Source: an uncultured Candidatus Saccharibacteria bacterium (lineage in GTDB: Bacteria; Patescibacteriota; CAZHWT01). Taken from it: 64,000 nucleotides of DNA. Location: positions 15,671 to 79,670 of the forward strand of contig CAZHWT010000001.1 of the NCBI GenBank assembly GCA_964536215.1. The letters are read 5' to 3'. The first letter of the stretch is position 1, and every line of letters starts with the position of its first letter. The position numbers and the translations under genes are program-made. The notes beneath the pieces were generated by a model. The model was not told the origin of the DNA. It saw only the letters and a list, made by a program, of their open reading frames with translations, and did no database searches. This document shows, in pieces, positions 21,794-48,707 of this stretch.

Positions 21794-21794
21794 G

Positions 21795-22352
21795 TTATTG
21801 CCAATCAGAGAGTATAGTTTGGTTGATGAGTCGTCGCGGAGCAGCACTTGTGCCATAGCAAATCACGGCTGAAGCCTCAACTTTGGTGCCATCCGCTAGT
21901 CGGTGCATGACAATTTCGCGGTAAAAATTTGACGAATCTGGGATTTTGTAAGCGCTACTGCTACGAATTTGGCTGCAGCGGTCTTTTCCAGCATCTGAGG
22001 CTGACAGGTTGCCTTTATATTCTAGCGTTGGGTCGCCAGAAGCGTCATTTAAGACATAATGCCGATATGTATCTACCTGCAGCACGGTCGGCGACGCATT
22101 AGACGACTCCAGCAACTTATTCCAGGTATTCTTGTCGCGAATTACTCGCAATGTTTCGATAGCCTGGCGAGAGTATTGGTCGGCAATAGCCTGATTGCGC
22201 GACTCATTAACCGCGTTGAGTGAGGCATTTGTGACTACAACTAATGCCACAATAGCAATACTCACAATAGCAATGGCTAAGACAACCTCTAGCAAGGATA
22301 ATCCTTGCTGGCTAGAAGTACGTGACGTGGACGTTAAGTGTAATTGCTTCAT
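21795..22352 (-). CDS. Type IV minor pilin-like protein (QQG|LSLLEVVLAIAIV)
   Basis: Prepilin-type N-terminal cleavage/methylation motif with Glu5. Confidence 0.55.
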   Translation of the reverse strand: MKQLHLTSTSRTSSQQGLSLLEVVLAIAIVSIAIVALVVVTNASLNAVNESRNQAIADQYSRQAIETLRVIRDKNTWNKLLESSNASPTVLQVDTYRHYVLNDASGDPTLEYKGNLSASDAGKDRCSQIRSSSAYKIPDSSNFYREIVMHRLADGTKVEASAVICYGTSAAPRRLINQTILSDWQ

Positions 22353-22355
22353 ATA

Positions 22356-23971: not shown

Positions 23972-24170
23972 ATAGTGCTCAGAGTACTGCGATTAATGTT
24001 TTTGCTACTTTACAGAGATAAAAACTGATACGTACGTACACGTATATGTACCTACAATTTTCTATTTTCTATTTTCTATTTTCTATTTTCTATAAATAGC
24101 CTACCAGGCAGGCACTAAAAAAGAAAGCGCCCGAAGGCGCCTTCTTTAAGGTAAAGGACTGCTAAGTCTT

Positions 24171-24683
24171 TTACTTAGGAAGATGGAAAGTTGTACCTTC
24201 CGTAGGAGCATCAGCCGCAGCTGGAGCTGCCCCACACTTGTACCAAGTTTGCCCTAAGCTGGTGTAATACGCAATGTACACATCGCCAGAACATTTAGTC
24301 GAGAACGCGGCTTTAGCGCTCTGAGAGGCCAAGGTGCCGTAGTAGATCAAGTCAGCGCCAGACGAAACTACGATTGGGGTGATGGTCGATCCAGGAGCTT
24401 GCTTGAGGAACCCTCCACCAACGAGACCTGACGTTGAGTCACCAATAGATTGGCAAGATGTTGCATACGTTGTACCACCACCTGTTGAGGTGTAACAAGT
24501 TTCAACAGCAGTTGCTACCTGACCAAGATCACTCTTTACCTTAGAATCGTTGGCCTCGTTTATACGCTCGGCTGGGTTAATGGCGACCAAAACAACAGCG
24601 GCCAAAATACCGATAATGGCGATAACGACCAATAATTCGATAAGGGTGAAACCTTTTTGAATTGATTTATACATGGGTTTCAC
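24171..24683 (-). CDS. pilA: Type IV major pilin PilA
   Basis: MKPMYKSIQKG|FTLIELLVVIAIIGILAAV classic prepilin N-terminus. 170 aa. Confidence 0.8.
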   Translation of the reverse strand: MKPMYKSIQKGFTLIELLVVIAIIGILAAVVLVAINPAERINEANDSKVKSDLGQVATAVETCYTSTGGGTTYATSCQSIGDSTSGLVGGGFLKQAPGSTITPIVVSSGADLIYYGTLASQSAKAAFSTKCSGDVYIAYYTSLGQTWYKCGAAPAAADAPTEGTTFHLPK

Positions 24684-24858
24684 CTCCCTTCACAAAAGCA
24701 AAGATGTATCCGGATGGACATCTTTGCTGGTGTTTTAGATAAGTAAGAGAGAAAAATGCAGGGCAGGGCATAGGTGGTTAGTGGTGGGTAGCGTGTGGTG
24801 AGTAGGTAATAATAGTATTATCTTTTACTATACTGCACCCAATGGAATCGGGCAAGCA

Positions 24859-26064
24859 TTATCCAATACTTCCCAGTACGCCATAGATAGGCAAGAGTAA
24901 GGCGAAGATTAAGAAACCGACACAAACACCCAGCACAATCATAATAATTGGCTCTAGGGCGGTTGATAAGTTTTTCACAGTGTTATTCGTTTCCTCTTCA
25001 AAGGTGTGGCCAACTTTAAGCAAGACCTCGTCCAGCTTACCCGTCTTTTCGCCAATCGAGGTCATTTGGTTAACTAGTCGGGGGAAGATAGGCTGGCGTT
25101 CAAAGGCCGTCGCTAGTGCCGCCCCTTTTTCGACCGATTGAGCAATGCTGGCGGCAGCCTCCTGGAAACGAATATTGGTTAACGTCTCTTTAGAAATATC
25201 CAGAGCATCAAGAATTGGCACACCAGAGCTAATTAGAAGCGCCAGCGTGTCAATAAATTGCGTTAGCTGGACTAAGTGATTTAATTTGCCAAAAATCGGC
25301 ACTTTAGCAAATGTGTCAGAAATGACATACTTACCCTTAAGCGTAGAGGCAAACCAGCGATAGGCCGCAATTACTCCTACAATAAGTAGAATCATAATGT
25401 ACCACTGGCTGGTAAATAGATTTGAAATGCCAACTAAAATGAGGGTGCTTAGGGGTAGATCAACATCCAAACTCTCATAAACCTGCTTCATTTGCGGAAT
25501 AACAAAGACCATCATAACGGCCATAACACCGGCCATGGCAATCAAAATGATAATTGGGTAAATTAGGGCACCTTTAACCTTGGCTCTGAATTCGGCCTGG
25601 CTTTCTAAGGAATCAGCCAGCTTAACTAAAATTTTATCTAGATTACCCGATGCTTCACCGGCCTTAATTAAGCTGATATACAAACGAGGGAAGATTTGCG
25701 GATACTTTTCCAGCGAGCGAGAGAATGACAAGCCACCATCAATATCCCGAACTATTTCTTCAAGGGTTTTTTTGAAAAAGCCAGGCTTTAGCTGAGCGGC
25801 TAACACTTCCAAAGCCTGGGTTAGAGGTAAGCCGGCATTTACCATTGTGGCCAACTGTCGTGTTGTGGTTGACAGCACCTTACCGGACACCTTATTAGCG
25901 CCCAGCATGCCCATTATGTCTGTTTGGCGCTTGAGCTCCAGAGAAGTAATTAACAGTTTGCGATTCCGCAGAATATCGGCAGCTTGGTGCTCATCGGCAG
26001 CCTCGATAAGACCCGATGAAGCGGCGCCGGTTTCACTGAGTGCGGTATAACGATATGTAAGCAT
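24859..26064 (-). CDS. pilC: Type IV pilus platform protein PilC (GspF family)
   Basis: Two T2SSF repeats. Three TM segments. 401 aa. Confidence 0.85.
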   Translation of the reverse strand: MLTYRYTALSETGAASSGLIEAADEHQAADILRNRKLLITSLELKRQTDIMGMLGANKVSGKVLSTTTRQLATMVNAGLPLTQALEVLAAQLKPGFFKKTLEEIVRDIDGGLSFSRSLEKYPQIFPRLYISLIKAGEASGNLDKILVKLADSLESQAEFRAKVKGALIYPIIILIAMAGVMAVMMVFVIPQMKQVYESLDVDLPLSTLILVGISNLFTSQWYIMILLIVGVIAAYRWFASTLKGKYVISDTFAKVPIFGKLNHLVQLTQFIDTLALLISSGVPILDALDISKETLTNIRFQEAAASIAQSVEKGAALATAFERQPIFPRLVNQMTSIGEKTGKLDEVLLKVGHTFEEETNNTVKNLSTALEPIIMIVLGVCVGFLIFALLLPIYGVLGSIG

Positions 26065-26082
26065 AATTTTGTGTACTGCCCC

Positions 26083-27186
26083 TTATGCAGTTGGCGTCTG
26101 AGGCTGAGCAGGTTGATTGCGTAGAATGCGATCCAGCTCGCCAGCTCGCAGAGTGTGCTGCTTAGCTTCTTCTAATGATATTTTGCCGGCTTGAATAAGT
26201 GTGGCCAGTGATCGCTCAAGGCTTACCATGCCCTGGTCGCCACCAGTCATCATTAAGTTATCGATTTGATGAGTCTTGCCTTCGCGAATAACTGATCGAA
26301 TACCAGAGTTGATGGCCAAAATTTCTGTCGCCGCTACCCGCCCACCACCTAATGCTGGGATGAGCCGCTGAGAGACAATACCCTCTAACGAGCCGGCTAA
26401 CTGCGCTCGGACTTGGGCTTGCTGATGCTCTGGGAAAACATCGATAACACGGTCGACGGTCTGAGCGGCTGAGTTGGTGTGAAGTGTGGCAAATACTAAG
26501 TGGCCAGTTTCAGCAATGGTTAGCGCCGCAGAAATTGTTTCATAGTCACGCATTTCGCCAACCAGTACTACGTCAGGATCTTCACGCAAAACAGAGCGTA
26601 GGGCAATGTCCCACGAATGCGTATCTAGATGAAGCTCGCGCTGAGTAATGAGTGAGCGGCGATGCGGGTAAACATACTCGATTGGATCTTCAACGGTAAT
26701 AATGTGGGCGGCGCGCGTTTCGTTTATCTGATTAATCATGGCAGCCAACGTGGTCGACTTACCGTGCCCGGTCGGGCCCGTCACTAGCACAAACCCCTGG
26801 GGAAGAGTAGTGAGGCGCTGCACCGCTTGGGGTAAGCCTAACTCCTCTAAGGTACGGATAGTGGTAGGAATGAGTCGCAGGGCGGCTCCCAAATAGCCTT
26901 TTTGATGGTAAATATTGACGCGGAAACGAGCCACTTCACCAAGAGCAAAAGAGAAGTCAACCTCTTTGTTGGAGATGAGAATATCTTTTTGTTCGTCACT
27001 GGTGAGAGAAAACGATAGGTCTTCCAAATCTTTGGCCGTTAACGGATTTAGCCCCTCGATAGCCACCAACGATCCATCAATTCTGACCATTGGGAGAGCG
27101 CCAACCGTTAAGTGCAGGTCGGATGCCTTACGGCGAATTACCTCTTCGAGCAACTGTTGAATTGTGGGAGTAGCTGTGGTCGGCAT
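26083..27186 (-). CDS. pilT: Twitching motility ATPase PilT
   Basis: Walker A GPTGHGKSTTLAAMI. No N-terminal GSPII_E_N extension. 367 aa. Confidence 0.8.
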   Translation of the reverse strand: MPTTATPTIQQLLEEVIRRKASDLHLTVGALPMVRIDGSLVAIEGLNPLTAKDLEDLSFSLTSDEQKDILISNKEVDFSFALGEVARFRVNIYHQKGYLGAALRLIPTTIRTLEELGLPQAVQRLTTLPQGFVLVTGPTGHGKSTTLAAMINQINETRAAHIITVEDPIEYVYPHRRSLITQRELHLDTHSWDIALRSVLREDPDVVLVGEMRDYETISAALTIAETGHLVFATLHTNSAAQTVDRVIDVFPEHQQAQVRAQLAGSLEGIVSQRLIPALGGGRVAATEILAINSGIRSVIREGKTHQIDNLMMTGGDQGMVSLERSLATLIQAGKISLEEAKQHTLRAGELDRILRNQPAQPQTPTA

Positions 27187-27404
27187 AGTTAAATACTTGT
27201 ATTTCCAGTATTACGTATCAAGCAAGCGATTGCAAGCCCTCAGCTGCTGAGGCAGCCGTTATTGGTTACTTTCCGCCAGAGGCGGACAAGAGCTACTTGG
27301 TGACTTGGTTTAACTGGGTGTCGGGTTTCGACAAAGCTATTCGTAGCATTCGTTGTTTGTGGATTCGAATATACATTCGTAATTTGGACGCTACTTATTT
27401 GTCA

Positions 27405-29123
27405 CTAAGCGATGACTCGGAGCACTTCTTCAAAGGTTGTCAGCCCCTCTAGTACCTTAAGCATACCGTCTTGTTTCATCGTAATCATGCCAGCCGCAAC
27501 GGCTTCGGCCTGAATTTTGTCAGCTGACTCGTGTTGCAATATTAAGCGGCCAATCTTGTCGGTTACTTCCAGCACTTCATAAATACCCGCTCGGCCTTGA
27601 TACCCCAGGTTATTACATTCGGAACACCCTTTTGGCATATACACTACTGGCTGCTTAGAGGCGGCCTCTTTTGGCATAAGCGGGCCAAGAATCTCTTTTA
27701 TCTGCTGCTCAATCTCAGGGGTGATGGGGGTGGGGACACGGCACTTAGGGCAGAGCTGACGAACTAGTCGCTGGGCCATAATGACATTTACCGATGAGGC
27801 TACCAAGAACGGTTCGGCACCCATATCTAGCAAGCGAGGCAGAGAGCCAGCAGCTGAGTTGGTGTGCAGAGTAGAGAGGACCAAGTGACCGGTTAAGGAG
27901 GCTTGGATAGCCAATTCCATAGTTTCACCGTCACGAATCTCACCAACCATTATAACGTTAGGGTCTTGTCGCAAGATAGAACGCAATCCTGAAGCGAAGG
28001 TGAGGCCAGCGGCGGGGTTGATTTGAACCTGATTAACACCGGCTACTTCATATTCGACTGGATCTTCGAGGGTGATTATATTGACCTTGACCGAGTTAAG
28101 CTTGGTAAGAGATGTTCGTAGCGTGGTCGTTTTACCAGACCCAGTTGGTCCGGTTACCAAAATAATACCAGCCGTTTTAGCTAGAGCGGTTTCGAACGTT
28201 TTTAGGGCATTACCTCTAATGCCGAGTTCTGCAAAGGTTGGCACACTGGCATCTTTACGCAATAGTCGCATAACCACCTTTTCGCCCTTAGCGGTGGGCA
28301 AAGTCGAGACACGCAGGTCAATTTGTTGCTCGCCGACCTGAATTTGAAAACGACCATCTTGCGGGACGCGCTTTTCATCAATTTTCATATTGGACAAAAT
28401 CTTAATGCGAGAGACAACCGAGTCGTGGACTTTATTGGGAAGCACCAATCGTTCCTGCAACACACCGTCAATACGATAGCGGACCCGAGTGTTTTCTACG
28501 CCAGGTTCAATGTGCACGTCAGAGGCGCGCGATTTGGCAGCGTATTCGAGCATAGTCGAGACAATGCGGGCCACTGGAGCGTCGCGGATAGCTTCGTCAA
28601 TTTTGCTAATGTCTTTAATTGATTCCTCAATCTTGGTCGTCTCCGTCTGAGCCTCGCGCAAAGCGGCACGGACGTCTTTATCGATTGACTGGGCATAGCT
28701 GGTTTCGATAGCGGCCTGAATTTCTTCCGCCGGGGCCACAAATGGCTTGACTCGCATACCACTCTTGGTTTCGAGGAATTCAATAACCTGCAAATCCAAT
28801 GGATCCGACATGGCTACCTGGATTTGGCCGTTATCAATACCAAAAGGCATGAGCACGTAGTGCTTGGCTACTGCTTCGGGGATTTTTGACAAGACTTCTA
28901 CACTAATAGCCTGTCCTTTTAGAGTAACGTAGGGAATATTGAGGATCTTGGCTTGTGCGCCAAGGATATCTTTTTCGCTAGCCCAGCCTTTGGATAAGAG
29001 AATTTCTCTTACCTGCTTACCAGTGTTAATCTGCTCAACCTTAACTTGAGAGACCTGGTCAGCGGTCAAGACCCCTTGGGCAGCGAGAATATCTTCAATG
29101 GTGTTGGCAGCAACTTCGGGCAT
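27405..29123 (-). CDS. pilB: Type IV pilus assembly ATPase PilB (GspE family)
   Basis: N-terminal GSPII_E_N domain. Walker A GPTGSGKTTTL. Tetracysteine motif CPKC...CSEC. 572 aa. Confidence 0.85.
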   Translation of the reverse strand: MPEVAANTIEDILAAQGVLTADQVSQVKVEQINTGKQVREILLSKGWASEKDILGAQAKILNIPYVTLKGQAISVEVLSKIPEAVAKHYVLMPFGIDNGQIQVAMSDPLDLQVIEFLETKSGMRVKPFVAPAEEIQAAIETSYAQSIDKDVRAALREAQTETTKIEESIKDISKIDEAIRDAPVARIVSTMLEYAAKSRASDVHIEPGVENTRVRYRIDGVLQERLVLPNKVHDSVVSRIKILSNMKIDEKRVPQDGRFQIQVGEQQIDLRVSTLPTAKGEKVVMRLLRKDASVPTFAELGIRGNALKTFETALAKTAGIILVTGPTGSGKTTTLRTSLTKLNSVKVNIITLEDPVEYEVAGVNQVQINPAAGLTFASGLRSILRQDPNVIMVGEIRDGETMELAIQASLTGHLVLSTLHTNSAAGSLPRLLDMGAEPFLVASSVNVIMAQRLVRQLCPKCRVPTPITPEIEQQIKEILGPLMPKEAASKQPVVYMPKGCSECNNLGYQGRAGIYEVLEVTDKIGRLILQHESADKIQAEAVAAGMITMKQDGMLKVLEGLTTFEEVLRVIA

Positions 29124-30400: not shown

Positions 30401-32368
<1,968 letters not shown>

Positions 32369-32506: not shown

Positions 32507-35218
32507 ATGTCAGAAGAAGCAACTAACAACCAAGACCACATGATTAATAACGCCGGACGAATTGTCGAGGCGCATATTAGCGAGGAAATGAAGAAGGCCT
32601 ATCTCGATTACGCGATGAGCGTTATTGTGGGCCGTTCCTTGCCAGATGTGCGCGACGGACTTAAGCCCGTTCATCGGCGAATTTTGTATGCCATGTTTAA
32701 GGATCTGGGCTTGACCCATGATCATAAATATTCCAAGTGTGCCGGTGTAGTTGGCGAGGTAATGAAAAAATATCACCCGCATGGAGACATGGCTATTTAT
32801 GACACCCTGGTTCGGTTGGCGCAGGACTTTAACATGCGCTATATGTTAGTGGATGGCCAAGGCAACTTTGGCTCAATCGACGGCGACAGCCCAGCGGCCA
32901 TGCGATATACCGAATGCCGCATGCGCGAGATTGCTGAAGAAATGCTGCAAGACATTAATAAGCAGACGGTAGATTTTATGCCTAACTACGACGGCGAGCA
33001 CCAAGAGCCGCTGTATTTGCCGAGCGCGTTGCCAAACTTGCTCCTCAATGGCTCTGACGGCATTGCCGTAGGTATGGCCACCAAAATTCCGCCGCATAAC
33101 CTGGGTGAGGTAGTTGATGCGTTAACGTATACCATTGACCACGGCCGACCAGAGGCGCCCGCTTCCCAAGATCAAGATGATTCAGTCGAAGAATTGCTAG
33201 ATCGCGCTAGTACTAGCGCGGACATGATTGTGGACACAGAAGAAAATAGCGAGACGGGTGGGGTAGAGATTACCAAAGCTAGGGCTCAGTTTACATCGGA
33301 TGTGACCGTTGATGAACTGATGCAGTTTATTCAAGGGCCAGACTTCCCGACCGGCGGGATAATCTATGACCAAAGCGAGATTAAATCGGCCTATGCCACG
33401 GGTAAGGGGCGGATTATTATGCGGGCTATTGCCACTATCGAAGAGGCTAAGAACGGTCGGTTTGCCATTATTGTTACAGCGATTCCTTATCAGCAGAATA
33501 AGGCTCTATTGGTGGCCAAAATTGCTGACTTGGTTAAAGACAAAAAAATTGACGGCATCTCCGACTTGCGCGACGAGTCCGACCGCGAAGGTATGCGGAT
33601 TATGATTGAGCTAAAAGCTTCGGCTAACCCACAAAGTGTTTTGAATAAGCTGTACAAGTACACGCCCATGCAGATGGCCTACAGTGCTAATATGATTGCG
33701 TTGGTTGACGGACAGCCACAGGTTTTAACCCTAAAGACCGCTTTAGAAGAATACATTAAGCACCGTCAGTCAGTGGTGATTCGCCGGACCGAATTTGATT
33801 TGGCGGCCGCTCGCCGTCGCGCTCATATTCTTGAGGGACTCAAGATTGCCCTCGACCACTTGGACGAGGTCATTACCACCATTCGTCAAAGCTCCAGTCA
33901 GGAAGATGCCAAGCAACAATTAATGTCCAAGTTTGGTATGACCGAAGTACAAGCAGTGGCCGTACTTGACCTACAGTTGCGCCGCTTAGCCGCCTTGGAG
34001 CGACAAAAGATTGAAGACGAGCTCAAGGCTACCCTAGCACTCATTGCTGAGCTAGAAGGCATTTTGGCCAGCCCGGAAAAAGTCTTGCAGATTGTTAAGG
34101 ATGAGCTCATCGCCTTGAAAGAAAAGTACATTGACGAGCGTAAGACTAAAGTAATTAAGGGTAAGGTTGGCGAGCTTTCGGATGCTGACCTGGTGGCCGA
34201 CGAAGAAGTGTTAGTAACTCTGACCAAGAGTGGTTACATTAAGCGCTTGCCGCCAGCTACCTATAAATCGCAAAACCGCGGCGGTAGGGGAGTAGCGGGC
34301 ATAAAACTGAAGGAAGAGGATGTTATTTCTCATATTCAAGTTTGTCGGACACATGACGATATTCTGTTCTTTACCAATAAGGGTCGCGTATTTAGTCTAA
34401 AAGTATTCGAGATCCCAGAGAGCTCTCGACAGGCTAAAGGGCAAGCCATTGTTAACCTCATCCAAATTGAACCAGGTGAAAAAGTCACAGCTGTCCTGAC
34501 TCAAACCCAAGAAGGTAAGATTCTGGAAGCCGGTGATGACGCGGCTCAGACGCCGGCGCCAAAATACTTGTTTATGGCGACGTTGCGAGGCACGGTTAAA
34601 AAGACGGCCTTGACCGAGTACAAAAATATTCGCAAGAGTGGCTTGACGGCTATTCGCCTGCTGGGCGACGACGAACTAGCTTGGGTCCGACCAACTTCTG
34701 GCGACGATAATATTATTATGGTTACCCGAGATGGTAAGGCTATCTACTTTAAAGAAAGCGATGTGTCTATTACTGGCCGAGCCACGGTGGGTGTGCGCGG
34801 TATTCGCTTAGCTAGCGGCGATGAGTGTATTGGTATGGATGTGGTGGCAGCCAACACCTCCGGCAAGGAAGCTGCCTTATTGGTAGTATCTGAACATGGT
34901 TACGGCAAGAAAACCTATGTTGGTCAATATTCATTGCAAGGCCGAGGCGGACTCGGTGTCCTCACCTTCCGGATTAGTGATAAAACCGGCAAGCTAACGG
35001 TAGTGCGCTTAATCCAAGCTGATGAAACGGCTGACATCCTGCTAACTTCTGTGCAAGGTGTGGTGATCCGCGAGCCACTCAAGGATATCCCCACCATCAG
35101 CCGCCAAACCAGCGGGGTTAAGATGATTCGACTTGCCGCCGGCGACAGAGTGGCCGCCCTGGCCTATCTGCCCGAAGACCAAGCAGAACAAGTGCCCGTG
35201 CAAGACGTAGTCGAATAA
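32507..35218 (+). CDS. gyrA: DNA gyrase subunit A
   Basis: Active-site region around AMRYTECRM. GyrA box-like C-terminal beta-pinwheel repeats. 903 aa, with an acidic insertion near residue 210. Confidence 0.9.
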   Translation: MSEEATNNQDHMINNAGRIVEAHISEEMKKAYLDYAMSVIVGRSLPDVRDGLKPVHRRILYAMFKDLGLTHDHKYSKCAGVVGEVMKKYHPHGDMAIYDTLVRLAQDFNMRYMLVDGQGNFGSIDGDSPAAMRYTECRMREIAEEMLQDINKQTVDFMPNYDGEHQEPLYLPSALPNLLLNGSDGIAVGMATKIPPHNLGEVVDALTYTIDHGRPEAPASQDQDDSVEELLDRASTSADMIVDTEENSETGGVEITKARAQFTSDVTVDELMQFIQGPDFPTGGIIYDQSEIKSAYATGKGRIIMRAIATIEEAKNGRFAIIVTAIPYQQNKALLVAKIADLVKDKKIDGISDLRDESDREGMRIMIELKASANPQSVLNKLYKYTPMQMAYSANMIALVDGQPQVLTLKTALEEYIKHRQSVVIRRTEFDLAAARRRAHILEGLKIALDHLDEVITTIRQSSSQEDAKQQLMSKFGMTEVQAVAVLDLQLRRLAALERQKIEDELKATLALIAELEGILASPEKVLQIVKDELIALKEKYIDERKTKVIKGKVGELSDADLVADEEVLVTLTKSGYIKRLPPATYKSQNRGGRGVAGIKLKEEDVISHIQVCRTHDDILFFTNKGRVFSLKVFEIPESSRQAKGQAIVNLIQIEPGEKVTAVLTQTQEGKILEAGDDAAQTPAPKYLFMATLRGTVKKTALTEYKNIRKSGLTAIRLLGDDELAWVRPTSGDDNIIMVTRDGKAIYFKESDVSITGRATVGVRGIRLASGDECIGMDVVAANTSGKEAALLVVSEHGYGKKTYVGQYSLQGRGGLGVLTFRISDKTGKLTVVRLIQADETADILLTSVQGVVIREPLKDIPTISRQTSGVKMIRLAAGDRVAALAYLPEDQAEQVPVQDVVE

Positions 35219-35221: not shown

Positions 35222-35989
35222 ATGTCCGTGTGGGGTAGACTACTATTCCGACCTTCCGAAAGCTATCGCTCCTATTTAGGTCCGCTCCTCAAAGCGAGCT
35301 ATTGGCAAGTGCGACTGTGGGCTTATCGGCTGTTAGACTCTTGGCGCTACCGAGCTATTCCAGCCAGGGTTGAAGTTTCTGGCGTTCCGCATTTTGGCCA
35401 GTTTGAATCGGCCAATCTGACTGACCAATTTTTTGACGGCCGCTTACGTGCAGTCGATGATCCTAAATGGGCTACTTCTGGCGCGGCGTCAGCTCAAGAG
35501 TATGCTGACTGGGTGTGGCATATATGCGGCGTAACCTGTTTTAAAATGATTTTAGCTCATGCCACTGGCCAGGTTATTCCGACGATAGCTCTGGCCAAAG
35601 GGTGCCAAGAATTCGGGGGATACGTCAGAAGTAAGTCTGGAGTGATTAATCCCAAAGGATTGCATTACGATGCATTCTGTAGGTTTATTGCTGAACGATT
35701 CGGTTGGACGGGGAGGGTAGTGGCGCCTCTAACCGTTAAACGGATGCAGGCGGAGCTGTCCCAAAGTCATTATGTTATTGCTTCCGTACATCCGTCTATT
35801 CACCAGCCAGCCACTCAGCCACCTGCCCGAGGTGGACATTTAGTCCTAGTTACGGGGTATAATGCTAAGGATAACAGCATAACCTACTCTGATCCTTGTG
35901 GTAGGCCGGGTCGTCAAGACGCTGTTGTGATTAGCCAGGAAGATTTTGGCCGTTTCTTTGCTCACCGGGGCATTGTCTTGTGGCCATAA
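35222..35989 (+). CDS. Peptidase C39-like (C39_2 / papain-fold) domain protein
   Basis: Putative catalytic Cys in WHICGVTCFKMILA and His in GGHLVLVTGYNAKDNSITYSDP, matching the C39_2 arrangement. 255 aa. Confidence 0.4.
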   Translation: MSVWGRLLFRPSESYRSYLGPLLKASYWQVRLWAYRLLDSWRYRAIPARVEVSGVPHFGQFESANLTDQFFDGRLRAVDDPKWATSGAASAQEYADWVWHICGVTCFKMILAHATGQVIPTIALAKGCQEFGGYVRSKSGVINPKGLHYDAFCRFIAERFGWTGRVVAPLTVKRMQAELSQSHYVIASVHPSIHQPATQPPARGGHLVLVTGYNAKDNSITYSDPCGRPGRQDAVVISQEDFGRFFAHRGIVLWP

Positions 35990-36056
35990 GATTTACTATA
36001 GCTGCCCATTTATATACTGGATGCCTCTTTGGCATTGCCAGTCAAAACAGTGTAAG

Positions 36057-37118
36057 ATGAGCACTATGAAGCATATTTCAACCGAAGAAGCTACAAACCA
36101 AGCCACGCCTATCCGACAACTACTAGCGGCATCTAAAGAAGCCGAGCTAGAGGTGGCCGTTGATGACCACATTATTCGCTTGACCGAACTGACCAAGCCT
36201 TTGTGGACCCTGCTAGACGTTCACGAGTCTCGTATTATTACCAAGCGGCAGTTAATTGAATACTATGTGTCCGTGTCGCCTTACCTCTTACCGCTTTTGA
36301 AAGACCGCCCCTTGGCAATTAAACGTTACCCGGATGGGGTGGGGGAGAGTAGCGTGCTGCAGCGGTACTTTGATGAAGTGCCCGAGTTTGTTGAAACAGT
36401 AGAGATTTGTAGCGATGGCGATGGCAACAATCGGCCGCACATCCTAGGGCAGAACTTAGCCACTCTAGTCTGGCTGGCTGACCTGGCGGCGGTCGAACTC
36501 TACCCCTGGAGCTCTCGTGTCGATGCTGCAGGCACTAGCTTGCCGACTATTTTTATCAATTCTATGGGTACGCTAGAAATGAGTGTACTTAACTATCCGG
36601 ACTGGTTAGTTCTTGATGTTGATGCGGCTGAGCCGGATCCAACTAAAGCCTTTGAGCGATCTCAACAGGCAGCTTTATGCTTACATGAACACTTGAGCTC
36701 GTTGAATTTAAGGCATTATGTCAAATTAAATGATCAAGCCAGCTTGCAGGTAATTGTCCCAATTGTCCGGCAATACTCCTACGACCAGGTGCGACAAGCT
36801 GCGAGGCGGATAAGTGAGATAATGGCCGAGCAATATGCAGATATTTTTACCAATGAGTGGCACGTCGAGCGACGCCAGGGTAAAGTCTTACTCGATTGGC
36901 AACAAAACACTCGAGCTAAAACCCTGGCCTCGCCGTATTCAGTACGAGCTACTGAGATAGCCACTGTTTCGCTGCCACTCGACTGGGACGCTTTAGCCAC
37001 AGTTAATCCGACTGAGCTGAGTCTTGACCGTATTCTGGCTAAGCCAGCTTTACTTACACCTCAACCGTGGTCCGACATTTTATCTCATCCCCAACAATTA
37101 CCTGCCGACTTGCTCTGA
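36057..37118 (+). CDS. Stand-alone LigD-type primase-polymerase (AEP superfamily PolDom) domain protein
   Basis: Motif I WLVLDVDAAEP (DxD). Motif III GKVLLDWQQNTRAKTLASPYSVRA. C-terminal ...VSLPLDWDAL..., equivalent to the LigD PolDom C-terminus. No ligase or Ku domain is attached. Confidence 0.55.
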   Translation: MSTMKHISTEEATNQATPIRQLLAASKEAELEVAVDDHIIRLTELTKPLWTLLDVHESRIITKRQLIEYYVSVSPYLLPLLKDRPLAIKRYPDGVGESSVLQRYFDEVPEFVETVEICSDGDGNNRPHILGQNLATLVWLADLAAVELYPWSSRVDAAGTSLPTIFINSMGTLEMSVLNYPDWLVLDVDAAEPDPTKAFERSQQAALCLHEHLSSLNLRHYVKLNDQASLQVIVPIVRQYSYDQVRQAARRISEIMAEQYADIFTNEWHVERRQGKVLLDWQQNTRAKTLASPYSVRATEIATVSLPLDWDALATVNPTELSLDRILAKPALLTPQPWSDILSHPQQLPADLL

Positions 37119-37431
37119 TACTGTTTGTTTTGTCGGGCATATCGCTATCCAGTGCCCTCAAGCAGAATCGACTGCGGCCAATCTGAACATCTCTATCTAC
37201 CAGCATCAACTGAAGTACGTACACATGTACGTACATGTGTACGTACTTGCGCAAATTACAAAACTCCTACTTTCAGTGCTGTCATTCAATACGATGGATT
37301 TTAGTTTATTACTATGATAGCTAAATATTTATCATTCCTTGCCGCTAAAAGTATGTATCGAACGGCTACTTAAGCCGATGTATACACCACTTGCAAAAAC
37401 CATAAAATTTTAGGTCGATTTGAGCAGAAAT

Positions 37432-37461
37432 TTGACAAAATAGGGGAGAGTATTGTATACT
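37432..37461 (+). promoter_or_regulatory. Sigma-70-type promoter TTGACA -N18- TATACT
   Basis: Consensus hexamers. Followed ~15 nt later by an intrinsic terminator at 37476..37497, which would give an RNA only ~30 nt long. Confidence 0.35.
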
Positions 37462-37475
37462 ACTTATATCTTGAT

Positions 37476-37497
37476 GCCGCTAACCAGCGGCTTTTTT
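37476..37497 (+). terminator. Rho-independent terminator gccgctaaccagcggc plus tttttt
   Basis: 6-bp GC stem followed by a T6 run. Confidence 0.5.
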
Positions 37498-37756
37498 CGT
37501 GCCTTTTTGCATCTGCTTATTTTATCTCCTTTCTGACCTTACGCAAATCACAGAATTATAAAACTTCTTCGGAATTGCCTACATTTACAGCCACTAAGAC
37601 TTATCGGTATAGCTAGATTAACCGTCAACCGAGGGGAGGATGATTGAACGGTAAGAAGTGAGCAGGCGTGGTGGCGATGAGCCCGTGTTGTGGTCTGTGG
37701 TGGGACAGGTAGGTGCCGATCAGGAGAATTAGTCAAAGGGGGACATGGGTCATCGC

Positions 37757-40381
37757 CTAGACTTTGACATTGTCTGTGGTTAACTCAATTGTTGCACCTT
37801 TTTTAATCGACTTGGTCAGGAGCTGCTTAGCCAAGGCGTTTTCAATTTTGTCTTGAATTAGGTGGCGCAATGGGCGGGCGCCGTAGAGCGGGTCATAGCC
37901 AGCCTCGGCTAGTTTGCGAATCAAATCGTCTGACACGGTTAGCTGAATGTCTTTCTCAGCCACTTGTGTAATTACTTTAGCCATCATAAGTTTCGCCACT
38001 TGGACCGACTCTTCGACGTTTAGCTGTCTAAATAGCACTATTTCGTCAAATCGATTAAGAAACTCGGGACGGAAATACCGTTGAGCCAGCATTTCTTTAA
38101 CGGCTGGCATCATTTGTTCGGTGGTGTAGCCTTGGCTAATGGCGTCTTGGATCGAGCGCGACCCGGCATTGGAGGTGGCAATGATAATTGTTTGGTTAAA
38201 CTGAACAGTATGTCCGGCAGAGTCTGTTAATCGGCCATCATCAAATACTTGCAAAAAGAGGTCTAGAATTTGTGGATGAGCTTTCTCCAACTCGTCCAAA
38301 AGCAAGACGGTAAAGGGTCGCTCATGAATGGCGGTGGTAAGATACCCGCCGTTGGGATCGCCAGGTGAACCAATTAGTTTATTAATGGCGGCTGGCTCTT
38401 GATATTCGCTCATATCTAGGCGAACCATTGACTCTTCAGAGCCAAAGTAGCTCTCGGCAATTGTTTTAGCTAGCTCGGTCTTACCCGTGCCTGTAGGACC
38501 AATAAATAGGAAAACTGCCATAGGCTTCTGACTGTCGCGTAAGCCGGCTCGGGAACGCCGCAAGGCATTAGCTACGGCGTCAATAGCGGTGTTTTGGCCA
38601 ACTAGCCTTTGGTGAAGCAGGTCTTCTAGGTGGGTTAGCTTTTCGGCTTCATCTTCGGTAACCTGAGTTACAGGTATGCCAGTTTTATCGGCCACCACTT
38701 TGGCGACGTCCTCGGCGGAGACCGTAGAGTGTTTAGCGTGCGCCGCATAAGCAGCGGCCTCATCGAGCAAGTCAATGGCTTTCTCGGGCAGGACACGATC
38801 ATGAATGTATTGTCGCGATAGCTCGACCGCAGCCTGAATAGCAGGCAGGCTAATCGTGACTTTCTGCTGAGCTTCAATTGCAGCAGTAAACTCTTGTAAA
38901 ATACCGATTGCCGTTGGAGTGTCCGGCTCCTGAACTTCGACAGTTTGAAAGTTATTAGTAAAGGTGGCATTAGGCTGCAAAACGCGACGGTACGATGCTG
39001 GATTAGTTGCGCCGATCACCTTAAGCTGGCCAGCCTCAATAAACGGCAGTAGTACAGCAGATACGTCAATTGTGCCAGCGCCGGTTTGGGCCACTAAATG
39101 CTCAATGTTGTCGATAAAGAGGATTGTTTTTCCAGCAATCAACTCTTTAAGCGCTTGGCTAAAGCGTTTTTCAAGTTCCTGCACATTAGCCGAACTTCCC
39201 AGGACCGCTTCTAAGTTAAGCTGAATTACTCGACTATCCGCCAATCCAGGAGAAGTGGTGGCTTGCAAAATGCCTTGAGCAATACCGTCGACAATTGAAC
39301 TTTTGCCCACGCCTGGTTCACCAATAAGTAGAACATTATTCTTAGTTGTGCGCTCCAAGATTCTCACGACCGCTTCAATCTCTGTTTGGCGGCCAATAAT
39401 ATAAGGGGTCTGCCCAGCCGCCACCTGGGCTGTAATATCGGTCGATAAATGTTTCATGGTTGGCGTCCAGCCACTGGTCCAACCGCGATCAACGCCACCA
39501 GATCGGCGGAAGTATTCGTCCTGCCACCAACGCCACTGCTTTTTGGCCAGAGCCTCTGCTTCTACCCAGCCGCTGGCTCGGCGCAAGTCTTCTAAATGAA
39601 TGCCTAACTCCTTTAGGCTATCGGCGACTGCCGGGCTAACGGCAATGAGGCCAAAGAATAGGTCGGTAGAGGTGATAAAGCGATGCCCATTTTGTAAGCT
39701 GGCGGCTACAGCTGCATCTATGAGGGCTTGCTGACTGATGACCTGACTTTGCTTTATTGAAGCCTGCGTTAGTCGGCTGAGTAATTGCTGATCAGACAGC
39801 TCCATTCGCTTAAACAATTGGGTCATACGGCGAGTAACGGCTAACGTCCGCATGAGGCTGGCGGTAGAGAAGGTGGTTGGTAGCTCTCGCAAAATACGGC
39901 GGGCACTTCCGGCCGTAAAATCCCGCAATGTCTCCAAATCTAGCGGCTCCTCTGCCGCCATGGCTTGATACTGGCGGACGTCATATTTGGGCTGCAACAC
40001 GAAGGCTATCCAATAATAGCCTAGACTAGCTATGGTTACGATTACACCCAAAAGGACATTCCAACCGCCGCGATACAGGCCAATAATAAAACCAAAGGGT
40101 GCCGCTAGCCAAAGGCTAAACGCAAAGAGCAAAGCGCCGGCTACAACCGCTAAGACGGTAACACCAAATAGAATCCAGCACAGCCGGAACAGGACGCCTA
40201 ATCCTCGTCCAACGGCAGTACGATCGTTATGATAAGGACTAAAGAGAGATGTAAGTTGGGGGACAATATTGACCTTATCGCCCAACAGGATAATCGTTCG
40301 ACTAGCAAAGGTCCACCACCATTGCAACTTATCAACATACCACCACCAAGGAAAGTGAGCCAGGTAACTAAGGGCAGACAT
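37757..40381 (-). CDS. Membrane-anchored Clp/Hsp100-family AAA+ ATPase (ClpC/ClpB-like, two AAA+ modules) with ~4 N-terminal TM helices
   Basis: Walker A in D1 (GEPGVGKSSIV) and D2 (GPTGTGKTELAKT). Clp_N-like repeat. ClpB D2-small domain. Hydrophobic Trp-rich N-terminal 130 aa. Confidence 0.7.
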   Translation of the reverse strand: MSALSYLAHFPWWWYVDKLQWWWTFASRTIILLGDKVNIVPQLTSLFSPYHNDRTAVGRGLGVLFRLCWILFGVTVLAVVAGALLFAFSLWLAAPFGFIIGLYRGGWNVLLGVIVTIASLGYYWIAFVLQPKYDVRQYQAMAAEEPLDLETLRDFTAGSARRILRELPTTFSTASLMRTLAVTRRMTQLFKRMELSDQQLLSRLTQASIKQSQVISQQALIDAAVAASLQNGHRFITSTDLFFGLIAVSPAVADSLKELGIHLEDLRRASGWVEAEALAKKQWRWWQDEYFRRSGGVDRGWTSGWTPTMKHLSTDITAQVAAGQTPYIIGRQTEIEAVVRILERTTKNNVLLIGEPGVGKSSIVDGIAQGILQATTSPGLADSRVIQLNLEAVLGSSANVQELEKRFSQALKELIAGKTILFIDNIEHLVAQTGAGTIDVSAVLLPFIEAGQLKVIGATNPASYRRVLQPNATFTNNFQTVEVQEPDTPTAIGILQEFTAAIEAQQKVTISLPAIQAAVELSRQYIHDRVLPEKAIDLLDEAAAYAAHAKHSTVSAEDVAKVVADKTGIPVTQVTEDEAEKLTHLEDLLHQRLVGQNTAIDAVANALRRSRAGLRDSQKPMAVFLFIGPTGTGKTELAKTIAESYFGSEESMVRLDMSEYQEPAAINKLIGSPGDPNGGYLTTAIHERPFTVLLLDELEKAHPQILDLFLQVFDDGRLTDSAGHTVQFNQTIIIATSNAGSRSIQDAISQGYTTEQMMPAVKEMLAQRYFRPEFLNRFDEIVLFRQLNVEESVQVAKLMMAKVITQVAEKDIQLTVSDDLIRKLAEAGYDPLYGARPLRHLIQDKIENALAKQLLTKSIKKGATIELTTDNVKV

Positions 40382-45012: not shown

Positions 45013-45532
45013 TTAGGCTTCGAATTCAACCAGGATAGGAAGATGATCAGAGACTTGGGTAGATATAATTTGACTATTGATAATTTTCCAGGTCGCGCTG
45101 CGGAGTGGCCATAAACCGATCAGTGTACGAAGCATGAGTAGTGCCAACGCACAACGGCTGGTCAGCCCCGATATTGAGCTCAACTTGGCTATAGGCGCGC
45201 GTTTCGCTAGCAAAATCGCTAGAGCTAGTGGCCGTTTGCGTTTCGACATGTGATGGCGAGGAGAGAGGGTATCGGCTAATAATGGCATTGCCTTGCTCTC
45301 TATCGATGTTGCCCTGCTGATTAATCCATTGCTGAGCAGCAACATAGTACCCCCGATACGGTTTGCCCAGTTTTTGCATCACACTATCTGCGCTTGTTAC
45401 ATACGGGCGGAAGGACGTGGCGACGACTTCCTGCAGGCACATGATGTCCGGCCTGATATCAGCAATACATTCAGCAACCTTTTGCGGATCTTCTTTATAC
45501 CAAATGTTCCATTGCAGTAAGATTATTTTCAT
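45013..45532 (-). pseudogene. Endonuclease/exonuclease/phosphatase (EEP) family gene, split by a frameshift in an A4 homopolymer near 45079-45086
   Basis: N-terminal EEP part (LQWNIWYKEDP...DIMCLQEV) lies in ORF 45074..45532. The C-terminal SDHLPILVEFEA signature is in a different frame (ORF 45013..45345). Deleting one A in ggaaaatt would fuse ...RDLE to IINSQIISTQVSDHLPI. Confidence 0.5.
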
Positions 45533-45615: not shown

Positions 45616-46584
45616 CTACTCTTCATCCTGAGTAGAGGAGAGGTCTTTGTTGCCGCTATGGAAGGATGAGTGAATGTCTTTGAGGTGTTTATTGGTGACG
45701 TGAGTATAGATTTGGGTGGTGGCAATATTGGAATGGCCGAGCATTTCCTGGACGCTGCGTAGATCGGCGCCGTTAATTAATAAATCTGTAGCAAAGGAGT
45801 GGCGCAGTGTGTGCGGCGTAGCTTTGACCGATAAGGCTTGTTGCTTAACGTACTTTTCAACCATACGAGCCACCGAGCGGGGAGTGAGACGTAGGTCTTC
45901 CCCATCTTGGTCTTCCGGATTATGTTTTTTGCCGTTGTAGCGGATAAAAAGCGGTTTATGCTTATCTTTTCGTAACTGGAGATATTTGGCCAGCCAATCA
46001 ATGGCTTCATCTGATAAAAAGACTACTCTAGCCTTGCGCCCTTTGCCAATTACGCCAAATTCGCGGCGCTCCAGATTAATTTGATCTCGGTTAAGCGAGG
46101 TTAGCTCGGCCACCCGTAAGCCGGTCGAAAATAACGTTTCTAAGATAGCTCTATCCCTAATTCCCTCGATAGTAGTCGTATCTGGGGCCTCGATAAGCTG
46201 TTCTAGCTGCTGCTGATCTAAAAACTTGACCGTACGGTCCCCTTGTTTACCCAGCTCCACCTGATCTGGCGCCAGGGTGGTATAGCCTTTTAAGATTAAA
46301 TATCTCAAAAAAGCTCGCAGTCCGACCATAAAATAATTCTGATAGGAGCGCTTTAGTTCGTGCTTAGTCACTTCGCTCACCTGTCGGGTTAGGTGGAGGC
46401 GATATTTTTTGACCATCTCATAGGTTAAACCCTGTGGCTCGACTGGGCCGTAATTCTCAGTTAGCCACTGAGCAAAATGCCGCAAATAAAAGTCATAAAT
46501 GCGGACGGTGCCTTGCGACAGGTTCTTCTCTAGCTCGCTGTATTCAATAAAATCGGTTATAAGGTCATTCAATGGCTTGGACAT
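45616..46584 (-). CDS. xerC: Tyrosine recombinase XerC/XerD family
   Basis: N-terminal SAM-like core-binding domain. C-terminal catalytic R...HxxR...Y (HTLRHSFATDLL ... GHSNIATTQIYTHV). 322 aa. Confidence 0.8.
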   Translation of the reverse strand: MSKPLNDLITDFIEYSELEKNLSQGTVRIYDFYLRHFAQWLTENYGPVEPQGLTYEMVKKYRLHLTRQVSEVTKHELKRSYQNYFMVGLRAFLRYLILKGYTTLAPDQVELGKQGDRTVKFLDQQQLEQLIEAPDTTTIEGIRDRAILETLFSTGLRVAELTSLNRDQINLERREFGVIGKGRKARVVFLSDEAIDWLAKYLQLRKDKHKPLFIRYNGKKHNPEDQDGEDLRLTPRSVARMVEKYVKQQALSVKATPHTLRHSFATDLLINGADLRSVQEMLGHSNIATTQIYTHVTNKHLKDIHSSFHSGNKDLSSTQDEE

Positions 46585-47930: not shown

Positions 47931-48707
47931 TTAGGTCCAGGCGCTTACAAAGTACAACACGACAATAATGATTCCACTGATAAATAAATACTGCTGTTGC
48001 ATGGCGCTTGAGAGCTGGCGGGCCTGTTGGTAATGAATGAGGCCAATGATCATGCTTATGCCTCCAGCTAAGCACAGACTAGTCATAAAACTTACAGGCC
48101 AAAATGCTAGGATGGCGGCTAGTTGAGCCGCTAGCAAGGCAACTAAGAACGACCAACCAATGCTATGGGTACTGCTGCGAGATAGTTTGGCCGCCCATAA
48201 TAACGGCCAACTTACCATCCAAGAAATACCCGCCACGGAGATAATCCACTCTCCTATATTCGGCAGCATGGACAACACGAGGTAAATTAAAGCGAATACA
48301 TATACCATGCCCATTAGGCTCATGACGGTTAAGGCTTGCCGGGCTAATGGGAGCGGCCTAACTGTGGCAACATTGAGAATGTTGAGGGTAAGAATTATAC
48401 CGTAATACCCCAAACTAAAAAGACCTACACTGGTCCAAACTAACCATGACGGTACGTGAAGCCAGTGCAGCCCCCAGTAGGCGGTTAGACTGAGTAACAG
48501 AGCATACAACGGAACAATGGCCCACTCCTCTGCTCTAAGGTCAAAGTCTAGCACCCAGACGGTAGCCAGGTACGTTATGATGAGGAAAGGGATGAGACTC
48601 CAGCCACCTAAAGGCCACATAATAGTGGCAGCGAGACAAGCACTCAAGCCAATAGCGCTGATAACAAATTTTTGTCTTTTAACGGAACGTAGGTCGAATG
48701 AGGACAT
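47931..48707 (-). CDS. Hypothetical polytopic membrane protein (~8 TM)
   Basis: 258 aa, Trp-rich hydrophobic helices. No family recognised. Confidence 0.45.
   Translation of the reverse strand: MSSFDLRSVKRQKFVISAIGLSACLAATIMWPLGGWSLIPFLIITYLATVWVLDFDLRAEEWAIVPLYALLLSLTAYWGLHWLHVPSWLVWTSVGLFSLGYYGIILTLNILNVATVRPLPLARQALTVMSLMGMVYVFALIYLVLSMLPNIGEWIISVAGISWMVSWPLLWAAKLSRSSTHSIGWSFLVALLAAQLAAILAFWPVSFMTSLCLAGGISMIIGLIHYQQARQLSSAMQQQYLFISGIIIVVLYFVSAWT

Follow-up and report, generated by a model that had tools for sequence, protein, structure and literature searches.

The 64-kb stretch of DNA analysed here (the window) carries gyrB and gyrA, followed on the same strand by two further genes, one for a C39-like cysteine peptidase and one for a LigD-type polymerase domain (PolDom) (Table 1). 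The C39 ATG (35222) lies behind the gyrA stop codon with a 3-nt gap, and the C39 stop at 35989 is separated from PolDom by 67 or 76 nt, depending on whether PolDom starts at 36057 or 36066; an earlier reading of the locus, made from the sequence only, had put this distance at about 65 nt and described both open reading frames as they stand in the ORF list. Both lie inside a block of conserved housekeeping genes, holB-gyrB-gyrA-...-clpB-rnhB-pbp, in which no compositional anomaly is seen (GC 0.47–0.50), and neither an integrase nor repeats were found flanking the pair. An Rfam scan of the long spacer 3' of PolDom gave only chance matches of miRNA models on a palindrome.

Table 1 Features at the gyrase-PolDom locus, in window coordinates
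Feature	Position	Strand	Basis or remark
gyrB	30404..32368	+	ORF; Pfam HATPase_c/DNA_gyraseB/Toprim on the identical gene in L001
gyrA	32507..35218	+	Stop codon 35216-35218
Peptidase_C39_2-type papain-fold cysteine hydrolase, 255 aa	35222..35989	+	PF13529
-10-like element AAAACAGTGTAAGAT, conserved, just upstream of the PolDom start	36044..36058	+	Similar elements in relatives
Stand-alone LigD-family primase-polymerase (AEP) protein (PolDom)	36057..37118	+	PF21686, PDB matches, AF2, Foldseek
Insertion of ~22 aa (…LPTIFINSMGTLEMSVLN…) right before motif I	36528..36593, boundaries approximate	+	Alignments
Motif I, D184-V-D186, metal ligands, intact	36615..36623	+	Alignment
Motif II, K220-L-N-D-Q-A-S-L-Q228	36723..36749	+	Family form K-x-[ST]-G-x-x-G-x-[HQ]
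Motif III, Asp277 (LLDWQQN), intact	36894..36896	+	Alignment

PolDom genuinely belongs to the family of LigD polymerase domains (Prim-Pol/AEP), as the sequence-only reading had proposed. The PF21686 profile (LigD_Prim-Pol) matches with an E value of 2e-61 and 208.2 bits over positions 1–245 of 254, and both Pfam profiles named in that reading, PF21686 and PF13529, score above their cutoffs (27.4 and 24 bits). With the NCBIfam model TIGR02778 (ligD_pol) the protein reaches 178.9 bits, which is under the equivalog cutoff of 214.7. Sequence matches in the PDB are Prim-PolC 6sa0 (1e-34), 5dmu, 2fao and 2iru. The AF2 model (pLDDT 95.2, pTM 0.92) retrieves 6sa1 and 5dmu with Foldseek at E values of about 2e-26 and TM scores of 0.76–0.90, and the top PDB fold matches are all LigD POL, Prim-PolC or archaeal NHEJ polymerase (TM 0.64–0.90), with CAPP structures as remote matches. 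The stand-alone architecture also held up; the full-length ORF contains neither a LIG nor a PE domain. Counted from 36057, the start chosen in the sequence-only reading and parallel to that of the L007 orthologue, the product has 353 aa; public gene calls use 36066 and a 350-aa form, and an exact look-up of the 353-aa product among public proteins gave no match. The insertion before motif I is a subfamily marker common to PolDom and some full-length LigD proteins, and is also present in P0009-P0012. Related loci were retrieved with the patterns MSV[LA]NYPD and LPTIFINS.

The motifs quoted earlier for PolDom are all in place: DVD (D184/D186), LLDWQQN (D277), PYSVRA and PLDWDAL. All 80 aligned family members share the Asp residues corresponding to D184, D186 and D277, and the window protein has all three, together with Q280 and N281 around motif III and with R270, Y291, S292 and R294. 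In the POL domain of M. tuberculosis LigD the metal-binding Asp triad is D137, D139 and D227, and Ser172 and His178 bind the incoming nucleotide (PMC8656161). PolDom K44 and K60, conserved in 99–100% of the family, align with Lys16 and Lys26 of the M. tuberculosis domain. Together with Asn13, these two lysines form the 5'-phosphate-binding pocket of that domain; at the Asn13 position the window protein has Glu41 and its lineage relatives have His or Ser.

Motif II is abnormal, as the sequence-only reading stated, but not for the reason it gave. Its H-to-Q explanation is rejected because Gln is an ordinary variant at that position (36/230 homologues); what is lost is Ser/Thr222, Gly223 and Gly226, which turns S-G-x-x-G into N-D-Q-A-S. 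Both glycines are invariant in 80/80 aligned family members and in 7/7 lineage members, in contrast to the window protein. The motif II pattern is matched by 230 of 233 homologues and, by pattern and by eye, the two further exceptions retain S/T-G-x-x-G, which leaves S222N, G223D and G226S unique to the window protein. The changes are five independent in-frame single-base substitutions and six independent assemblies agree on the protein sequence, for which reason a sequencing error or frameshift is rejected as their origin.

It is unlikely, in our judgement, that PolDom is catalytically dead in this species and now either an acquired LigD fragment in decay or a protein kept solely to bind DNA ends or gaps or to act as a scaffold. 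The three losses in motif II fit such a view, as does the score under the equivalog cutoff, and D-x-D has become N-L-S in a sister lineage (L020/P0006), so that catalytic motifs are eroded in two of about ten PolDom lineage members; the L007 orthologue (P0004) has intact motifs. Relic decay, however, normally brings frameshifts or stop codons, whereas this ORF is full length, encodes the same protein in all six assemblies, retains the three metal-binding Asp and other invariant residues, is predicted to fold with high confidence and does not evolve at an accelerated rate relative to its orthologues. Taken together, the rewritten motif II, the retained Asp triad and pocket lysines and the unaccelerated evolution suggest that polymerisation is probably weakened or altered. 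The loss of the Ser and two Gly may even abolish nucleotide binding, in which case ‘polymerase’ would misdescribe the window protein, and what selection maintains may in part be the binding of DNA.

The upstream protein matches PF13529 (Peptidase_C39_2; E 3.5e-9, 37.8 bits), which bears out its earlier assignment as C39_2-like with a papain fold. Q60, C102, G103 and H206, the invariant columns in 33 homologues, are all kept, and Gln60, Cys102 and His206 are the predicted catalytic residues, as read from the papain/C39 pattern. The family sequence HNPSG reads SDPCG here, an Asn-to-Asp change. The AF2 model has a pLDDT of 92 and finds only remote papain-fold matches in the PDB (TM 0.5 or less), and no signal peptide or TM segment was seen by eye. 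The protein is an apparently intact, cytoplasmic papain-fold cysteine hydrolase. Its family, of about 200 aa, is uncharacterised and scattered through Actinobacteria and Proteobacteria.

To place the locus, a lineage was collected through GyrA homologues, comprising six genomes: the window, L021, L007 (a 179-kb JGI contig), L008, L020 and L022/L023 (L022 being assembly GCA_964554805.1). The relatives were read over about 20 kb or less around PolDom and the window over 64 kb. GyrA identity is 73–86% inside the lineage (73–100% over all six genomes) and drops to 57% or less for other Patescibacteria; the best matches outside it are 55–57% identical and, where named, are Patescibacteria/CPR. Judged indirectly from these GyrA relatives, a reduced genome is plausible for the organism. 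GyrB identity is 77–88% across the five genomes that allow comparison over its full length. In all six genomes gyrB, gyrA and PolDom lie on one strand, and PolDom is fixed as a free-standing gene directly 3' of gyrB-gyrA in this one small Patescibacteria lineage; a metagenome scan found one locus, L020. Descent alone, without a functional link to gyrase, can suffice for the gyrA-PolDom order in so narrow a lineage. PolDom identities across the lineage are 41–62%, within the range of holB (46–52%) and slightly under rnhB (55–61%) in the same genomes. At protein identities of about 50%, saturation affects the synonymous sites; Tajima-type relative-rate tests against orthologues detected no faster evolution on the window PolDom branch. 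We count the identity range and these tests as support for PolDom being under purifying selection.

The neighbours of PolDom are less stable. Genes for a lipase and an HD hydrolase have been inserted in L008, and L022 has other upstream genes and a 1625-aa ORF downstream. The C39 gene lies between gyrA and PolDom in only two of the six genomes, the window and L021, whose copies group as sisters when 121 homologues are placed in an NJ tree. The gene is an insertion specific to this lineage, made in one sub-branch between gyrA and PolDom's promoter-like element, and not a conserved partner. Some AEP Prim-Pols occur in mobile elements and defence systems, and the sequence-only reading had proposed that C39 and PolDom may form a two-gene accessory module of an anti-phage system or mobile element. 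Their tight packing would suit this, with a 4-nt overlap in L021 in place of the short spacer, and the CAPP structures are among the remote fold matches. Yet PolDom stands without C39 in 4/6 genomes although gyrA-PolDom is kept in 6/6, so that the pair is not conserved, and C39 homologues elsewhere have unrelated neighbours, PolDom never among them. PADLOC-DB and PHROGs gave no family for either protein at E 0.01 or better, no relative of the PolDom clade was found on IMG/VR contigs, and these negatives give defence or a mobile element no support as the setting. With the housekeeping block, its even GC content and the lack of flanking integrases or repeats, the module is largely refuted, and we give it a nearly negligible probability.

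PolDom may have its own promoter. The -10-like element before it has similar counterparts (AAAAGCCGTATAAT or AAAACGTGTAAGAT) 5' of PolDom in L007, L008 and L021, and a consensus scan placed TTGGCA-18-TAAGAT at 36029-36058 with 9/12 matches, 3' of the C39 gene, the -10-like part being at 36053-36058. This conserved promoter-like element suggests that PolDom need not share a transcript with gyrase.

Outside the lineage, the nearest PolDom relatives (35–38% identical) are the POL domains at the C-terminus of full PE-LIG-POL LigD proteins that have Ku as a neighbour. A scan of genome contigs found only LigD proteins of this identity in high-GC MAGs and recovered neither the window's genome nor any close relative of it; the closest relatives correspond to residues ~530–890 of 896–897-aa PE-LIG-POL proteins, with Ku adjoining in L009, P0010 carries ligase domains and P0012 sits in a Ku-PE-LIG-POL operon. 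Most top PolDom matches among 1.84 billion representatives are likewise proteins of 500–990 aa, aligned in their C-terminal part. From these relatives we infer that PolDom goes back to the C-terminal POL part of a LigD with all three domains (PE-LIG-POL).

Bacterial NHEJ combines Ku (PF02735) and an ATP-dependent ligase (PF01068/PF04679) in one genome, usually as adjacent genes. The ligase, nuclease and Ku partners reported missing from the window were indeed not found: Pfam scans of all window ORFs of at least 130 aa, except those identified by synteny, and tblastn with Ku, LigD and PE queries detected no Ku, ATP-ligase or LigD phosphoesterase in the 64 kb. Ku, LIG and PE were also not found within about 10 kb of PolDom in five related genomes. 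We nevertheless weighed ordinary split NHEJ, on the models of Streptomyces, mycobacteria and Methanocella, in which a Ku homodimer and an ATP-dependent ligase of the LigC/LigD-LIG type, the product of a separate gene elsewhere in the genome, would be the partners of PolDom, and regard it as somewhat unlikely. PolDom belongs to an NHEJ polymerase family, its nearest outgroups lie in Ku-LigD loci, the 5'-phosphate-pocket lysines are conserved, and split NHEJ genes are well documented (PMC7719229, PMC5124664). This has to be set against the two negative searches and the erosion of catalytic motifs in two lineage members; moreover, NHEJ presence correlates with large genomes (PMC7719229), while this lineage is Patescibacteria-like. 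A search of the literature on NHEJ in CPR/Patescibacteria or on a link between PolDom and gyrase found nothing relevant.

The account that we tentatively favour is that of a LigD-derived PolDom, fixed 3' of gyrBA, with a rewritten motif II, that acts as a Ku-independent repair polymerase and has no conserved partner in C39. We infer that such repair is most likely its job in this lineage. In a working mode modelled on mycobacterial Prim-PolC, PolDom would dock on the 5'-phosphate of a short gap or of a recessed end at a break, fill in a few nucleotides, probably ribonucleotides, and leave a nick for a ligase encoded elsewhere. A more specific role, suggested by gene adjacency, would be that of a dedicated helper for gyrase-generated damage in organisms without canonical NHEJ. 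PolDom would then bind the 5'-phosphorylated, 4-nt-staggered ends that remain when gyrase cleavage aborts, and keep them together or fill them in until they are religated, and in the sub-branch with the inserted C39 gene its enzyme would degrade covalently trapped GyrA, as a bacterial counterpart of protease-assisted DNA-protein-crosslink repair. A role of this kind that tolerates the loss of catalysis would explain why motif II is eroded in the window protein and DxD in L020, but we consider it highly improbable.

The window holds a known protein family in an unusual, gyrase-adjacent setting, apparently as an orphan. Stand-alone LigD-type polymerases are known but, to our knowledge, almost all belong to organisms whose genomes are large and contain genes for Ku and ATP-dependent ligases as well. 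PolDom has been kept across substantial GyrA divergence, and in two branches despite the erosion of catalytic motifs. If the lineage lacks Ku and a matching ligase, the POL module alone would be worth keeping in a minimal genome; its retention would then point to a Ku-independent, possibly partly non-catalytic role, and the window protein would offer a natural ‘motif II knockout’ with which the functions of PolDom other than polymerisation could be dissected. Should genes for Ku and a ligase turn up in another part of the genome, PolDom would be no more than a split NHEJ gene of the ordinary kind whose active site is an odd variant.

Among known systems, the C39 protein shares its papain-like fold with PF13529 proteins such as B. 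anthracis 3ERV, with the peptidase domains of ComA and PCAT1 and with the phytochelatin-synthase-like Alr0975 of Nostoc, and its invariant Gln, Cys and His would fit the catalytic Gln-Cys-His-(Asn/Asp) pattern expected of the group. It differs from them in reaching a TM score of only 0.5 or less over the query, in having no transporter fusion and, by eye, in lacking a signal peptide.

The three-domain LigD proteins (M. tuberculosis Rv0938, P. aeruginosa LigD and the 896–897-aa LigD of L009-L012) share PF21686 and the three-motif AEP core with PolDom. Its alignment with residues ~530–890 of the L009 LigD (36% identity) covers the pre-POL linker as well as the pre-motif-I insertion. Unlike these proteins, PolDom lacks LIG and PE domains and a neighbouring Ku gene, has lost S-G-x-x-G, and lies next to gyrBA in Patescibacteria. 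The archaeal NHEJ polymerase of Methanocella paludicola (5DMU; Foldseek E 1.9e-26, TM 0.78/0.90) is also stand-alone and of similar size. The Methanocella genome, however, encodes separate Ku, Lig and PE proteins, a complete NHEJ set, whereas neither the window nor the ~10-kb flanks in its relatives showed partners of this kind.

The closest comparison is with mycobacterial Prim-PolC (PolD1; PDB 5OP0, 6SA0/6SA1), a LigC-associated, stand-alone LigD-type Prim-Pol and the best PDB match of PolDom (E 1e-34, Foldseek 1.7e-26, TM 0.76–0.81, 30% identity). Prim-PolC is a stand-alone PolDom homologue that fills 5'-phosphorylated gaps of 1–3 nt with rNTPs and does not bind Ku (PMC5663958), and its C-terminal Loop 3 (Msm residues 313–333) is required for gaps longer than 1 nt (PMC7442782). 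The alignment of PolDom to 6sa0 stops at chain residue 298, with five query residues (346–350) remaining. Because it ends where residue ~300 of Prim-PolC aligns, the window protein is without the subfamily-defining Loop 3; hence membership in the Prim-PolC subfamily is rejected, the window also containing no ligase gene, and the gap-filling analogy is only partial. PolDom differs further in its lack of an adjacent LigC, its extra insertion of ~22 aa before motif I and its broken motif II. What the two have in common is a free-standing PolDom fold with the Asp triad and the lysines of the 5'-phosphate pocket.

The gene under study encodes a stand-alone LigD-type primase-polymerase domain protein (PolDom) of the LigD_Prim-Pol family. 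In its 350-aa form it matches PF21686 over almost the whole profile (E 2e-61, Pfam search), and the gene between gyrA and PolDom matches Peptidase_C39_2 (PF13529, E 3.5e-9), so both family assignments of an earlier sequence-only reading stand. An NCBIfam search returned LigD models only, with ligD_pol at 178.9 bits, below its equivalog cutoff of 214.7. The best PDB sequence match is the mycobacterial Prim-PolC 6sa0 (E 1e-34); other top matches are the Methanocella NHEJ polymerase 5dmu and the LigD polymerase (POL) domains of P. aeruginosa and M. tuberculosis (Mtb). Structure prediction, which that reading had proposed, agrees: the AlphaFold2 model (50 homologues as input) reached a pLDDT of 95.2, and Foldseek recovered the same proteins (E about 2e-26, TM 0.76–0.90), with primases and CAPP as merely distant matches. 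PolDom is a member of a known protein family in an unusual setting, and its atypical feature is a broken motif II.

Features of the gyrase–PolDom region and other window loci (window positions unless a locus is named)
Feature	Position	Strand	Remark
Type IV pilus cluster	14800-29123		pilO, pilN, pilM, several prepilin-like genes, prepilin peptidase, pilC, pilT, pilB
gyrB	30404-32368	+	ORF
gyrA	32507-35218	+	ORF
C39 gene	35222-35989	+	ORF, 255 aa, PF13529 match
-10-like element	36044-36058; L007 about 9986-10000		upstream of PolDom
PolDom	36057 or 36066 to 37118	+	ORF, 353/350 aa, PF21686 match
Post-PolDom spacer	37119-37756		640 bp, non-coding
Palindrome	37213-37248		36 bp, perfect
Sigma-70-like site	37432-37461		TTGACA-18-TATACT
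Terminator-like hairpin	37476-37491		followed by T6
ClpB-like AAA+ gene	37757-40381	-	ORF, convergent, next after PolDom
Exo_endo_phos (AP-endonuclease-like) ORF	45074-45532	-	152 aa, profile positions 1-86 of 225
Tyrosine recombinase gene	45616-46584	-	adjoins Exo_endo_phos ORF
VirD4/TrwB-HerA-like coupling ATPase	51617-54532	-	971 aa

In an alignment with 80 family members and 8 lineage members, PolDom keeps motif I (D184 and D186), D277 of motif III, and Q280, N281, R270, Y291, S292 and R294. By profile alignment, K44 and K60 correspond to Lys16 and Lys26 of the 5'-phosphate pocket defined for the Mtb POL domain (PMC8656161), and Glu41 to pocket residue Asn13. Motif II reads K-L-N-D-Q-A-S-L-Q, against a family form of K-x-[ST]-G-x-x-G-x-[HQ], in which both glycines are invariant (80/80 family and 7/7 lineage members). 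Of 233 homologues 250 aa or longer, 230 match the pattern, and the two exceptions other than the window protein retain S/T-G-x-x-G, making this lesion unique among the homologues compared. The sequence-only reading was right that motif II is abnormal, but the His-to-Gln change it counted as degenerate is an ordinary variant (36/230); what is lost is S/T-G-x-x-G. Compared at the DNA level with the orthologue at lineage locus L007 (AAT GAT CAA GCC AGC TTG CAG in the window versus AGC GGC CAA GGT GGT TTG CAT), the changes are in-frame point substitutions, and six independent assemblies all carry exactly the same window protein. In Mtb LigD POL, Ser172 and His178 of motif II form hydrogen bonds with the incoming nucleotide's phosphates (PMC8656161); nucleotide binding is probably impaired in the window species.

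Catalytic motifs are damaged in two of about ten lineage members. The other is the sister-lineage protein P0006 (locus L020, 2050-3204), in which N-L-S replaces D-x-D with motifs II and III intact, a second and independent erosion. The homologue P0408 likewise carries N-L-D, plus an altered motif III. PolDom identities within the lineage (41–62%) are similar to those of holB (46–52%) and slightly lower than those of rnhB (55–61%) in the same genomes; relative-rate tests, taking either L022 or L020 as the outgroup, gave no significant excess of changes on the window branch, bar one marginal case; and the window protein departs from 13 family-conserved columns, against 8–15 in relatives. Judged by these values, the gene is maintained and shows no obvious decay.

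GyrA homologues form a tight group at 73–86% identity, followed by a gap to 57% or less, where the named proteins are from Patescibacteria (Daviesbacteria, Microgenomates, Dojkabacteria); the window lineage is therefore an under-sampled one of Patescibacteria/CPR. We compared the window with five lineage genomes, at loci L021 and L007 (GyrA identity 86% each), L008 (84%), L020 (76%, fragment) and L022/L023 (73%). PolDom follows gyrA on one strand in all six, a position conserved in the lineage, whereas the C39 gene occurs only in the window and L021. The remaining neighbours differ between genomes: L008 has two additional genes before ClpB, and L022 differs in its upstream genes and carries an ORF of 1625 aa downstream.

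The C39 gene is an insertion in a sub-branch. Its ATG lies 3 nt after the gyrA stop in the window; in L021 it adjoins that stop, and its end shares 4 nt with the start of PolDom. No remnants were found by tblastn in the 40–184-nt gyrA–PolDom spacers of the other four genomes. The two C39 proteins share 38% identity and are sisters in a neighbour-joining tree of 121 homologues, consistent with one insertion event. A -10-like element, AAAA(C/G)C(A/G)T(G/A)TAA(G/T)AT, stands just before PolDom in four genomes (window, L007, L008, L021); in L021 it falls within the 3' end of the C39 ORF. Its conservation suggests that PolDom probably has its own promoter, with C39 inserted upstream of it, and this weakens the case for obligatory co-transcription with gyrase. 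Public gene calls start PolDom at 36066, and the alternative at 36057 corresponds to the way the L007 orthologue begins ('MSM…'); the two are alike possible.

The sequence-only reading had proposed that C39 and PolDom form an accessory module, possibly of defence or mobile-element type. The limited distribution of C39 speaks against such a pairing; neither protein has a PADLOC or PHROGs match, no PolDom-clade relatives were found on IMG/VR contigs, and GC content around the pair is unremarkable, leaving the proposal unsupported. C39 homologues form a large uncharacterised family of about 200 aa (Serratia, Rahnella, Ensifer, Halomonas, Amycolatopsis and many metagenomes) with invariant Gln, Cys-Gly, Gly-Gly-His and HNPSG, the last being SDPCG in the window. 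Inspection by eye gave no obvious signal peptide or transmembrane segment. The AF2 model (pLDDT 92) has only remote papain-fold matches (phytochelatin-synthase-like Alr0975, the ComA and PCAT1 peptidase domains, 3ERV). Elsewhere the family has unrelated neighbours, with ASCH in Serratia, Ddl next to the homologue on a small contig, and assorted genes in Amycolatopsis. On that small metagenomic contig (L016, 4889-6699), a homologue with 38% identity and a similar N-terminal helix directly follows the D-Ala-D-Ala ligase gene, with a HEPN_AbiU2 gene nearby, which hints at a cell-wall-related or other setting. One further homologue, 40% identical, comes from a contig that is classed among the viruses (IMGVR_UViG_2751185817_000002).

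The rest of the window consists of housekeeping genes and the type IV pilus cluster (Pfam, synteny), without tRNA genes or Rfam families. The cluster immediately precedes holB-gyrBA and is kept in L007 and L008. The post-PolDom spacer, 40 nt in L021 and 178 nt in L007, has no Rfam match; its sigma-70-like site is the strongest of a 9-kb scan, with the hairpin 15 nt beyond. The ClpB/ClpC-like double-AAA+ protein, whose PADLOC matches are generic AAA+, starts with a hydrophobic stretch of ~130 aa, rich in Trp and kept in relatives, that looks membrane-embedded. GC dips to 0.42 at 46–48 kb, by the tyrosine recombinase and the probably truncated Exo_endo_phos ORF; a recombinase is also at the edge of the L008 locus. 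The coupling ATPase, possibly a DNA-transfer or uptake component, is flanked by ORFs without Pfam match (50696-51613 and 47931-48707). Towards the window end (62001-64000), GC drops to 0.39 and the GC skew becomes negative; a 284-aa ORF (62739-63593) has no Pfam match.

An exhaustive search of 1.84 billion representatives returned just a few close relatives of stand-alone form (P0002, P0330, P0331, P0006); weaker matches are mostly proteins of 500–990 aa aligned in their C-terminal part. Genome-collection matches at 35–38% identity are 896–897-aa LigD proteins with phosphoesterase (PE), ATP-dependent ligase (LIG) and POL domains, with Ku adjoining in locus L009, and P0012 (38%) lies within a Ku-PE-LIG-POL operon. 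PolDom shares with these relatives a ~22-aa insertion before motif I. Taken together, these matches make it appear to be a POL domain that was split off from a multidomain LigD of this subfamily.

There are no NHEJ partners near PolDom, in line with the earlier description of a gene lacking ligase, nuclease or Ku partners: Ku, ATP-ligase and PE were found neither in the 64-kb window (Pfam on ORFs of at least 130 aa unassigned by synteny; tblastn) nor in the flanks, up to about 10 kb, of five relatives. NHEJ is statistically associated with large genomes (PMC7719229), so its absence in this lineage would be unsurprising; PolDom may be an orphan or belong to a split NHEJ system. PolDom possibly has a DNA-binding role that needs no catalysis. 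Loop 3 (residues 313–333) defines Prim-PolC and is required for filling gaps >1 nt (PMC7442782); PolDom ends where Prim-PolC residue ~300 aligns and is therefore without it. By analogy with Prim-PolC (PMC5663958), PolDom would act in Ku-independent gap or end processing.
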